Positions 798-8,568 of a stretch of 8,568 nt of DNA are shown here, in pieces. The notes below the pieces were generated by a model. The model worked only from the letters and a program-made list of their open reading frames with translations, was not told the DNA's origin and did no database searches. How positions within the stretch are numbered: position 1 is the stretch's first letter; the number at the start of each line of letters is the position of its first letter. The translations under genes and the position numbers were made by a program. Location of the stretch: contig JAEOSI010000084.1 in NCBI GenBank assembly GCA_016840425.1, forward strand, positions 1 through 8,568, in the 5' to 3' direction. The DNA comes from Candidatus Wukongarchaeum yapensis (GTDB lineage: Archaea > Asgardarchaeota > Wukongarchaeia > Wukongarchaeales > Wukongarchaeaceae).

Positions 798-1636
798 TCT
801 CTTTCGAATTGGAAGGAACAGTTTGACCGGTTTAGGGCTTTTTTAACTTTGTTAACCGCTTTGCTTAGGGCTTTTTCAGCGGTTTGAAAATCTTTTGCTT
901 CTACTTCGATGCGGTATCTTGGTGCGCCTAGGGAGTATATGTCGATTTCGGATTTTTTATCTGCTGATAAAGATTTGGTAAGGGCGTCTTTAATGATGTC
1001 GACTCCGTTTGGTTCCGTGCTGTTTAATGAAAAAATACCGGATACTTTAACTTTTTTAACTTCAATAGATGACTTTGCAAATTCTTCTAAGATGTCGGCC
1101 CATTCTTTCGGGATTCCTGCATTTATTAAAATTTCAGCTCCTCCTTCAAAAGCAGCTTCTAAACCCCCGTAACTGCTTCCAAATTCTTTTTCTAGAATAT
1201 CATTCACTTCTTCCAAGCTGAGGGGTTTCACTCCCATTTCCTCGATTCTTTTCTGGGCTAAAGCGAGGAGATTTGCTGCTTTTTGCGCGTTTTTCCATGC
1301 TCGAAGTGTTTCACGTTTTTGGGAGTCTGAGACCCTACGCATCGAGACATCGACTTGCCTTTTCTGGCGGTTAACCCGAAGCACCTTAGCAACTGCCTTT
1401 TGCCCTTCCTTTATGTAGTTCCGAATATTTCGCACCCATGTCGAAGCTATTTTCGGAGATATGACGGGAAATCATATCTTTTCCGAGATATGACAAAAGG
1501 CTTCTTCTTCTATGTTGGGGTATTCATCTATTTTGAAATAGGCGCCATATGGTGTTACCTTGTTGCAGGTGACTACAAGGAATTCGCCTTCTTCGGGCAT
1601 ATATTCTTCTTTTTCGTAACCTGTTTTTTTCGTCAT
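794..1636 (-). CDS. eif2a: Translation initiation factor 2 alpha subunit (aIF2-alpha/eIF2-alpha); join(complement 1481-1636, 794-1450); 270 aa after removal of a 30-nt intron
   Basis: The ORFs 1472..1663 and 794..1435 are in the same frame. The N-terminal S1 domain (PEEGEFLVVTCNKVTPYGAYFKIDEY...HISE) continues as IASTWVRNIRNYIKEGQKAVAKVLRVNRQKRQVDVSMRRV and ends with the ...YSLGAPRYRIEVEAKDFQTAEKAL domain. ATG at 1636 is preceded by GGAGG (1644-1640). Confidence 0.92.
1451..1480 (-). other. Predicted 30-nt BHB-type mRNA intron in aIF2-alpha
   Basis: The mRNA reads UCGG-AA^A-AGAUAUGA-UUUCCCG-UCAUAUCU-CCGA-AA^A-UAGC. It has a 4-bp central helix UCGG/CCGA, two 3-nt AAA bulges and an 8-bp intron stem. 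Cutting after the 2nd nt of each bulge removes 30 nt, including the in-frame UGA (1474-1472), and gives UCG GAA AUA GCU (S-E-I-A). Confidence 0.85.
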
Positions 1637-3987: not shown

Positions 3988-4090
3988 TGCGGGGGACGGG
4001 ATTCGAACCCGCGCAGGCCTACGCCACTGGGTCCTGAACCCAGCACCTTAAACCAAAAAACCTTTTTTGGCCGGACTCGGTCACCCCCGC
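3988..4090 (-). tRNA. tRNA-Leu(CAG) with an 18-nt D-loop intron at 21/22 (4049-4066); CCA not encoded
   Basis: Acceptor GCGGGGG/CCCCCGC, anticodon arm CUGGG-UU-CAG-GA-CCCAG, long variable arm and T-arm GCGGG-UUCGAAU-CCCGU. Removing the BHB-defined intron gives the normal D-loop GAGUCCGGCCAAAGG. Confidence 0.93.
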
Positions 4091-6429: not shown

Positions 6430-6445
6430 AAAAAAAGGAAAAAAA
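6430..6445 (-). terminator. Oligo-U tracts downstream of tRNA-Trp (archaeal-type terminator)
   Basis: Two T7 runs on the minus strand (6445-6439 and 6436-6430), starting about 15 nt after the CCA end. Confidence 0.45.
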
Positions 6446-6459
6446 GGGCAGGTTTTTTG

Positions 6460-6588
6460 TGGTGGGGCCTGCGAGATTTGAACTCACGTGAGCGGGTACC
6501 TTCGTCGTATAAAAATCCTCTGGAGCCCGCCATGCTACCAAGTTGTGCCTAGCGGCTTGTTTTGCTGCTTTGTCTACATCAAGGCCCC
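6460..6588 (-). tRNA. tRNA-Trp(CCA), CCA-encoded, with two introns: 31 nt in the D-loop (about 15/16; 6543-6573) and 22 nt at the canonical 37/38 site (6498-6519)
   Basis: Acceptor GGGGCCU/AGGCCCC + ACCA, D-stem AUGU/GCAU, anticodon arm GCGGG-CU-CCA-GA-CCCGC after removing the 22 nt, T-arm GUGAG-UUCAAAU-CUCGC. Removing the 31 nt gives the standard GUAGCUUGGUAGCAU D-arm. Confidence 0.9.
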
Positions 6589-6597
6589 ATCGATGGC

Positions 6598-6652
6598 TCG
6601 AATCTCCTGAGACTGATCATCGTATATCACAGTACCCAATCCAGATCATCGC
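6598..6652 (-). ncRNA. Candidate box C/D guide sRNA in the 5' leader of tRNA-Trp
   Basis: GCGAUGA (C, 6652-6646) - 15 nt - GUGA (D', 6630-6627) - UAU - ACGAUGA (C', 6623-6617) - 15 nt - UCGA (D, 6601-6598). The architecture is symmetric and the guides pair with pre-tRNA-Trp at C39 and C34 by the +5 rule. The D boxes are non-canonical. Confidence 0.6.
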
Positions 6653-6671
6653 CAATTAGGACAAGATTTTG

Positions 6672-6679
6672 TTTATTTA
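6672..6679 (-). promoter_or_regulatory. Putative TATA box for the sRNA-tRNA-Trp co-transcript
   Basis: TAAATAAA on the minus strand, 20-27 nt upstream of the C box. No TATA-like element lies closer to the tRNA 5' end. Confidence 0.45.
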
Positions 6680-7588: not shown

Positions 7589-8002
7589 ATGAGGGTAGAG
7601 AATCCTATCAAACGATACAAATCAGGCAACCATTTGGTGTACAGTTGTCAGTATCATGTCATATTCTGTTCAAAGTATAGAAGATCAGTACTTGTAGGTG
7701 GTGTTGAAAAGAGACTTAAAGAGTTAATTCTTGAAAACCAGGAAGAATACGGTTATGAAGTGCTCGATATGGAGATTATGTCAGACCACGTTCATTTATT
7801 GCTGGATGTGAATCCAAAGATAGGTGTTTTTAGAGTTGTTAACAAGATTAAGGGATATACTTCCAGAAAACTCAGAGAGGAATTTCCAGCTCTGAGAAAG
7901 CGTCTTCCAACTTTGTGGACTCACTCGAAGTTTATATCCTCTGTCGGGGCTGTAACTCTTGAAGTTGTTAAAAAATACATTGAAGAGCAGAAGGGGAAAT
8001 AG
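7589..8002 (+). CDS. tnpA: IS200-type Y1 HUH transposase
   Basis: YSCQYHVIFCSKYRR, the HUH motif DHVHLL, LWTHSKFISSVG and the catalytic Y-x-x-x-Q (KKYIEEQ). Confidence 0.96.
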   Translation: MRVENPIKRYKSGNHLVYSCQYHVIFCSKYRRSVLVGGVEKRLKELILENQEEYGYEVLDMEIMSDHVHLLLDVNPKIGVFRVVNKIKGYTSRKLREEFPALRKRLPTLWTHSKFISSVGAVTLEVVKKYIEEQKGK

Positions 8003-8004
8003 AG

Positions 8005-8568
8005 ATGAAGAGGACCAACATCTTCAAGTTAAAACCAGCAAAGGAGCAGGAGCAAAGACTGTTCGAGTTAGCCGATAACTGTGCAAGGATGTTTAACGAG
8101 ATAAACTATAAGAGAAGACAGTCCTTTTTCTCGCGAAACTTCGAATGGAACACCGACGAATCCTACCACAAATACAAGAAGATTATAGGCTCTGCAACAG
8201 CCCAACAAGTAACAAGGAAGAACAACGAAGCTTGGAAGTCTTTCTTCGCTTTGTTAAGGTTGAAAAAAGAGGGAAAACTCCCAAGGCAGATAAGAAAGGT
8301 TTCTCCTCCAGGCTACTGGAAAGACAGGAAAACGGGGAAAAGGGTTTTAACCATTCTCATAAGGTGTAACTGTTATAAGCTTTCCGAGAACTATTTAAAA
8401 CTCCCCTTAGGACTAAAAGTTAGGTGGAAAGGAAAGAACAGGTGGGAAGGAAAAAAGCAGGGAAGGTTAGAGATAAGTTATGATGACCTCTCAAGGAGAT
8501 GGTATGCTTATATGCCGGTAGAGGTAGAAAAACCCCTACATCAACCAACAGGAGACAAGAAAAAGAAG
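8005..8568 (+). CDS. tnpB: TnpB RNA-guided nuclease (3'-partial; not in the supplied ORF track because it lacks a stop)
   Basis: ATG 2 nt after the tnpA stop. The frame is open to the window end: MKRTNIFKLKPAKEQEQRLFELADNCARMFNEINYKRRQSFF...SATAQQVTRKNNEAWKSFF...PPGYWKDRKTG...RWYAYMPVEV. It ends just before the expected RuvC-I (GIDLG-type) motif. Confidence 0.9.
   Translation, partial: MKRTNIFKLKPAKEQEQRLFELADNCARMFNEINYKRRQSFFSRNFEWNTDESYHKYKKIIGSATAQQVTRKNNEAWKSFFALLRLKKEGKLPRQIRKVSPPGYWKDRKTGKRVLTILIRCNCYKLSENYLKLPLGLKVRWKGKNRWEGKKQGRLEISYDDLSRRWYAYMPVEVEKPLHQPTGDKKKK

Follow-up and report, generated by a model that had tools for sequence, protein, structure and literature searches.

A probable box C/D guide RNA in the 5′ leader of tRNA-Trp in a Wukongarchaeum genome, related to the tRNA-Trp intron guides of other Asgard archaea

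The 5′ leader of the tRNA-Trp gene of Candidatus Wukongarchaeum yapensis contains C, D′, C′ and D-like boxes and two guide stretches that face C39 and C34 of the downstream pre-tRNA, and this pattern of boxes and pairing is real and not the product of chance. The element is probably a double-guide box C/D sRNA, a homologue of the guide found within the tRNA-Trp intron of other Asgard archaea, relocated here to the 5′ leader. RNA-guided methylation of tRNA-Trp at C34 and position 39 is the textbook case of an intron serving its own host RNA, and the locus presents this known guide system in a new gene layout. A sequence-only reading of the same DNA had proposed that the guide function moved from the intron to the leader; intron-borne homologues with the same architecture and the same two targets in the same phylum now support that proposal.

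The window, that is, the whole stretch of DNA analyzed (8,568 nucleotides), is an entire 8.6-kb contig (C70) of a 2.16-Mb archaeal MAG with 38% G+C. This genome is labeled G000, and other G-numbers denote other genomes of the Asgard phylum. The GTDB class of G000 comprises three species genomes only: G000, its congener G001 (labeled Hodarchaeota), and G002, from a sister family of the same order. A PCNA gene 3 kb from the locus is 93% identical to the copy of Candidatus Hodarchaeota archaeon isolate DZ1B.339. Elsewhere in the window, 3993–4090 (minus strand) holds a probable class II tRNA, by eye a tRNA-Leu with anticodon loop UUCAGGA (CAG) and an insert in the D-arm region, which was missed by ARAGORN and gave only a weak tmRNA/T-arm match. 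The stretch 7589–8568 (plus strand) encodes an IS200-type TnpA (Y1 transposase, E = 9e-41) and, after it, an open frame with no Pfam match that runs off the contig and is possibly tnpB. Six tRNA genes of the same genome, on contigs C3, C89, C137, C189, C232 and C259, are immediately preceded by a conserved element of ~60 nt (…CACCCTCAAAGGATCAAAG…GGCGTTTT…).

The tRNA-Trp gene and the features within and after it lie at the following positions.

6460–6588, minus strand: tRNA-Trp(CCA) gene, CCA end encoded, interrupted by two introns
about 6576–6546, minus strand: intron 1, in the D arm
6519–6498, minus strand: intron 2 (37/38), 22 nt
6523 and 6496, minus strand: C34 and C39, respectively
6430–6445 (6445–6439 and 6436–6430), minus strand: two T7 runs after the tRNA, a putative archaeal-type terminator

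Without its introns the RNA is 76 nt long and forms a clean cloverleaf with anticodon CCA. ARAGORN made no call of tRNA-Trp in the window, and an Rfam search of the window (E up to 1) called neither tRNA-Trp nor any C/D family, the sole trace of the gene being a weak tmRNA/T-arm match. The 37/38 intron is indeed only 22 nt long and free of boxes, as had been described, and the guide lies outside it, upstream of G1.

The leader sRNA spans 6652–6598 (minus strand), with four boxes and two 15-nt spacers, and ends 9 nt (6597–6589) before tRNA-Trp G1 (6588). All coordinates of this layout, first read from the letters, were re-derived.

6672–6679, minus strand: TATA-like box TAAATAAA, its 3′ end 21 nt before G6650
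6646–6652, minus strand: box C, GCGAUGA, with the GAUGA core preserved and C in place of U2; invariant in four sequences
6631–6645, minus strand: C–D′ spacer, 15 nt, holding the D′ guide (6638–6631)
6627–6630, minus strand: box D′, GUGA, 5 nt (UAUAC) before the GAUGA core of C′
6626–6624, minus strand: D′–C′ loop UAU, 3 nt
6617–6623, minus strand: box C′, ACGAUGA (AAGAUGA in relatives); GAUGA core intact and invariant in four sequences
6602–6616, minus strand: C′–D spacer, 15 nt, holding the D guide (6612–6604)
6598–6601, minus strand: box D, UCGA, followed by GCC
6589–6597, minus strand: 3′ stem GCC(A), which pairs with 6654–6651, and a linker of 5 nt up to tRNA G1, free of oligo-T runs

Boxes D (UCGA) and D′ (GUGA) are non-canonical, a caveat that had been raised and is confirmed here: the terminal GA is kept and positions 1 and 2 deviate from CUGA. 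With UCGA, the pairs beside the tandem G·A would be U·C and G·U. The terminal GGC/GCC stem (6653–6651 with 6597–6595) abuts possible tandem G·A pairs, with no obvious 3-nt kink-turn bulge, and the UGGC/GCCA form of the stem is present in the minimum-free-energy fold. Spacers of archaeal sRNAs are typically roughly 12 nt, a norm from which both 15-nt spacers depart. Strict and relaxed regular expressions for a canonical double-guide C/D sRNA (RUGAUGA…CUGA…UGAUGA…CUGA) gave no convincing match in the whole 2.16-Mb genome. Fibrillarin, Nop5 and L7Ae are nevertheless encoded, and the sRNA set of this genome may be small or non-canonical.

Both guides pair with the precursor of the adjacent tRNA in the register of the N+5 rule. 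The D′ guide forms eight contiguous pairs (six Watson–Crick and two G·U) with pre-tRNA positions 6500–6493, and opposite G6635, the fifth nucleotide from D′, stands C6496 (C39). For the D guide, eight of nine positions pair with 6525–6517, the fifth nucleotide from D (G6606) facing C6523, which is C34; a mismatch of A6608 with A36, two positions from the target, splits this duplex 4+4. Both pairings, the A·A mismatch included, had been claimed in the sequence-only reading and were recovered in full. When 200,000 random 15-mers from the genome and shuffles of the real guides were tested, the chance of equal pairing was P = 1.7e-4 to 7.5e-4 in the C39 register and P = 3.4e-3 to 4.1e-3 in the C34 register. 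The joint chance of both registers is ~1e-6, and some freedom in box placement leaves the conclusion unchanged.

That the boxes are a chance resemblance, with no functional RNA behind them, consequently has a negligible probability. The non-canonical D and D′ boxes, the failure to match an Rfam family, and a fold no more stable than that of shuffled sequences (z = –0.14) would fit such a resemblance; unstructured guide regions are, however, expected for C/D sRNAs, and the joint pairing probability, selective conservation, and evident sequence homology with the intron guides found throughout the phylum all speak against it.

Each guide duplex takes in three nucleotides of intron 2, in keeping with the suggestion that the pairing is specific to the pre-tRNA, and this specificity is clear for the D′ guide, whose duplex on the precursor reaches –13.4 kcal/mol vs. 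–10.1 kcal/mol for the best off-register alternative on the spliced arm. The suggestion fares less well for the D guide, for which the specificity is only modest: the precursor duplex (–10.4 kcal/mol) gains only 1 kcal/mol over an off-register alternative on the spliced arm (–9.4 kcal/mol). Because the D guide carries the A·A mismatch and its precursor energy barely beats that of the spliced arm, guidance of C34 may be weak or lost.

As rival targets, the 16S and 23S rRNA sequences of the genome (4.6 kb of rRNA) were scanned. The D′ guide finds 12 pairs, three of them G·U, in 16S rRNA near position 149, with a score of 21 vs. 15 for the pre-tRNA site. This match, at first better than that to the tRNA, was rejected as within chance, since 10% of shuffled guides reach an rRNA match as good, and the best rRNA match of the D guide falls below the shuffle median. 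The sequence-only reading had named better rRNA targets for both guides as an alternative, and none exceeded chance in this shuffle test. It is accordingly very improbable that the sRNA is an rRNA methylation guide, aimed through D′ at the 16S site, that adjoins tRNA-Trp by coincidence. Its homologues reside in tRNA-Trp introns, and a U-to-C change at guide position 8 in relatives improves the tRNA pairing and would break a 16S U-A pair if the 16S site is unchanged. Among the other tRNAs and RNase P RNA, the guides found only G·U-rich or off-register matches.

The TATA-like box TAAATAAA predicts a transcription start at about 6653–6649. It is kept in G001 and in two metagenome contigs that share the locus, and other tRNA genes of G000 are preceded by similar boxes of the GGTAAAATAAA type. 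The only TATA-like box had been placed upstream of the C box; TAAATAAA does lie there and is kept, but the sRNA itself also contains one A/T-rich hexamer, AUAUAC (6626–6621), in the D′–C′ loop ~35 nt before tRNA G1. This hexamer is not conserved, being replaced in G001 and the metagenome contigs (GUGAUGUAAG and GUGAUUUAAG there). The gap between box D and G1 contains no T run and no conserved TATA-like box. From the 9-nt gap, its lack of a T run, and the lack of a conserved promoter-like box inside the sRNA, we infer that the leader sRNA and tRNA-Trp are co-transcribed. A weak internal promoter for tRNA-Trp may exist in addition.

The same evidence bears on whether the sRNA, though a real tRNA-Trp guide, is an independent gene, in which case each of the two RNAs would be transcribed from a start of its own, with no role for RNase P in producing the sRNA. 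AUAUAC offers a potential start for the tRNA, and free-standing trans-acting tRNA-Trp guides exist, for example, Pyrobaculum sR26 (PMC6009581). This arrangement is nevertheless unlikely, given that the hexamer is absent from the relatives, that no T run lies between box D and G1, and that the 9-nt distance between them is fixed in all four assemblies.

Among 400 genomes of the phylum, of which 158 were pattern-searched for the guide, the leader form is confined to G000 and G001; two metagenome contigs, SMTZ1_10013996 and Ga0209536_100035652, have it too. All four combine a short, box-less intron with an upstream guide, and since the assemblies are independent, the leader form is not an assembly artefact. 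The boxes are thus conserved upstream of tRNA-Trp in relatives, a point on which the sequence-only reading had made its proposal depend. All 16 proposed pairs are kept in the four sequences (64 pair cells, all paired), and the single guide change among them, U6638 to C in the metagenome contigs, replaces a U·G pair with G42 by C-G. When G000 is compared with G001, the sRNA differs at 2/55 positions, both in the D′–C′ loop, and the guides at 0/30, compared with 28/175 (16%) for flanks and introns (Fisher p = 0.010 vs. the sRNA); the tRNA exons differ at 2/76. The loop (6626–6622) is the only variable stretch within the sRNA.

At least eight other Asgard families have the guide within the long 37/38 intron of tRNA-Trp, namely in genomes G002; G007, G017 and G152; G027 and G153; and G005, G008, G023, G160 and G040/G057. 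These were found with the pattern GATGA-N5-YTCWGGAG, which joins the C′ box to the anticodon-complementary core, so GAUGA and GGAG at spacer positions 10–13, common to all intron-borne homologues, are the search pattern itself. The 11-mer GGCTCCAGAGG proved too unspecific for a phylum-wide survey of tRNA-Trp, most of its matches lying in coding sequence. The tRNA-Trp of G002 was located with the guide-based pattern, a loosened anticodon pattern having returned nothing tRNA-like. The intron guide, invoked earlier as an established feature of Euryarchaeota, is known there but not confined to them, being common in Asgard genomes.

All intron-borne homologues place C34 opposite the D guide in the same register, with runs of 10–11 pairs. 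For the D′ guide, a script identified C39 as the facing nucleotide in G005, G027 and G152, and sequences read by hand gave the same result for G002 and G007. The closest homologues share the 15-nt C′–D spacer with its GGAG and the GAUGA core of C′. Box C of G002 is GCGAUGA, as in the window, with AGGA-GCC after the 15-nt spacer; G007 has UCGA-GCC after the spacer, identical to the window; G017 and G152 have CCGA-GC, and G027 and G153 GUGA-GCC, in each case after 15 nt. The UCGA, CCGA, GUGA and AGGA variants at box D are therefore family-typical, judged by these members. The distant families (G005, G008, G023, G160 and G040/G057) show no clear NNGA after a 15-nt spacer. Box D′ of the homologues is CUGA or CCGA, 5–7 nt before GAUGA. 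The window differs from the Asgard intron guides in three respects: the location of the guide, a derived U-to-A change in the D guide opposite A36 relative to all intron-borne homologues, and a host intron shrunken to 22 nt vs. 59–67 nt in those measured.

Covariation of guide and target, suggested earlier as a check, is seen in part. The D′ guides of G000 and G005 differ at positions 2, 3 and 7 and match their own targets at each (C-G/U-A, A-U/C-G and G-C/A-U), and U6638 to C improves pairing, but the four sequences of the leader-form clade, which are too closely related, show no double compensatory changes.

The evolutionary polarity, from intron to leader, is clear. The ends of the 22-nt intron (AGGAUUUU… and …CGAAGG) resemble the ends of the long introns of G005 and G027, and the short intron looks like the ancestral one minus its C/D core. 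The retained ends are exactly the guide-paired nucleotides and are also part of the splicing motif. The core may have moved by reintegration of the excised intron, or through a tandem duplication with later reciprocal loss.

Several observations concern the intron form elsewhere in the phylum. In G023, G160, G040 and G057 (L112, L133, L105 and L106), the D guide matches C34, whereas the match of the D′ guide to position 39 is gone; this second guide may be lost or retargeted. G033 (L113, about 1390–1620, plus strand) carries a guide-bearing Trp-type tRNA whose anticodon loop, CUUCAGA, gives the anticodon UCA and would thus read UGA. The sister genome G023 has CCA at this place, and the tRNA of G033 may be an opal-reading tRNA-Trp or an assembly variant. 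Family f9 (L100–L104; G211, G245, G263, G056 and G293) has a tRNA-Trp intron of ~28 nt without boxes and no upstream sRNA. The pattern used found no free-standing guide in this family; recurrent matches in several f9 genomes lie in coding sequence and were rejected.

The leader element might also be a decaying relic, in which only the D′ guide (C39) or neither guide works and which is kept by linkage to the tRNA promoter. The derived A·A mismatch of the D guide and the two non-canonical boxes would fit such decay, as would the loss of the position 39 match by the intron form in G023, G160 and G040/G057. Set against this, guides and all four boxes are invariant or improved in four assemblies where neighboring non-coding DNA differs by 16%, and we regard a relic as quite improbable.

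For the element as a relocated double-guide sRNA, a pathway can be outlined. The genome encodes fibrillarin, Nop5, L7Ae-family proteins and RNase P RNA. With a start ~25 nt downstream of the TATA-like box, at box C or immediately before it, the transcript would run through sRNA and tRNA to the oligo-T runs. L7Ae would bind the C/D and C′/D′ motifs and Nop5–fibrillarin would assemble on them. The D′ guide, paired with the junction of intron 2 and the 3′ exon, would direct 2′-O-methylation to C39, and the D guide, which pairs with the junction of anticodon loop and intron 2, would direct methylation of the wobble C34. Because both duplexes need intron nucleotides, the guide would have to act ahead of splicing, either in cis, on the transcript that contains it, or in trans, on further precursors, and RNase P cleavage at G1 would part sRNA from tRNA. 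Tentatively, the guide may act in cis on the nascent transcript, with RNP assembly and methylation of C39 and C34 followed by RNase P and the splicing endonuclease.

The nearest published counterpart is the C/D guide in the euryarchaeal pre-tRNA-Trp intron (Haloferax volcanii; Pyrococcus sR50), which, in the accounts that PMC7994747 and PMC11408192 give when citing Clouet d'Orval 2001 and Singh 2004, guides Cm34 and Um39. These intron guides are published for Haloferax and "other Euryarchaeota" (PMC11408192; PMC7994747). Like them, the leader element is one double-guide C/D RNA for positions 34 and 39 of its own pre-tRNA-Trp, is linked to the tRNA-Trp gene, and pairs across exon–intron junctions, so that it would act before splicing. 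Unlike them, it lies in the 5′ leader, so that it would be freed by 5′ processing and not by the splicing endonuclease; position 39 is C and not U, and the lineage is Asgard. Our literature search found no paper on C/D guides in Asgard tRNA-Trp, and a recent preprint on Asgard tRNA introns makes no mention of Trp, boxes or guides.

Dicistronic tRNA–sRNA genes are known from N. equitans, where sRNA8 follows tRNA-Val (PMC3491384), from I. hospitalis and T. tenax (PMC7994747), and from Pyrobaculum, where sR44 follows tRNA-Met (PMC6009581); plant tRNA–snoRNA genes are also dicistronic. The published examples, archaeal and plant alike, place the sRNA after the tRNA, with its 5′ end produced by RNase Z (PMC3491384; PMC7994747; PMC6009581). 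The window shares with them a gap of a few nucleotides, no promoter or terminator in between, and, as predicted here, one sRNA end defined by tRNA end-processing. It differs in that the sRNA is upstream, so that RNase P would make its 3′ end, and in that the sRNA targets the very tRNA to which it is fused. Pyrobaculum sR26, a free-standing trans-acting guide for C34 of tRNA-Trp (Lui 2018, PMC6009581), likewise lies outside the intron and targets the wobble C34, but is an independent gene, whereas the guide in the window is fused to the tRNA gene, keeps a C39 guide, and needs a retained intron.

According to PMC7668247, Cm34 of tRNA-Trp is believed to prevent C34 from decoding the stop codon UGA, and for this reason the guide bears on decoding fidelity. 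The tRNA-Trp guide system is widespread in Asgard archaea, beyond Euryarchaeota, and a guide can leave its intron yet remain physically tied to its target gene. The ends of the shrunken intron are still in both target sites, which gives a concrete reason for the persistence of a small tRNA intron. The gene order is reversed relative to published archaeal and plant tRNA/guide dicistrons and would make RNase P an sRNA-processing enzyme. If the guide does act in cis, one primary RNA would run an ordered programme of methylation, then processing. If the relocation is true, the locus would show how a guide RNA leaves a tRNA intron and becomes a gene of its own, and this in the lineage of archaea nearest to eukaryotes; it would illustrate, as a natural intermediate, how snoRNA genes evolved their mobility.
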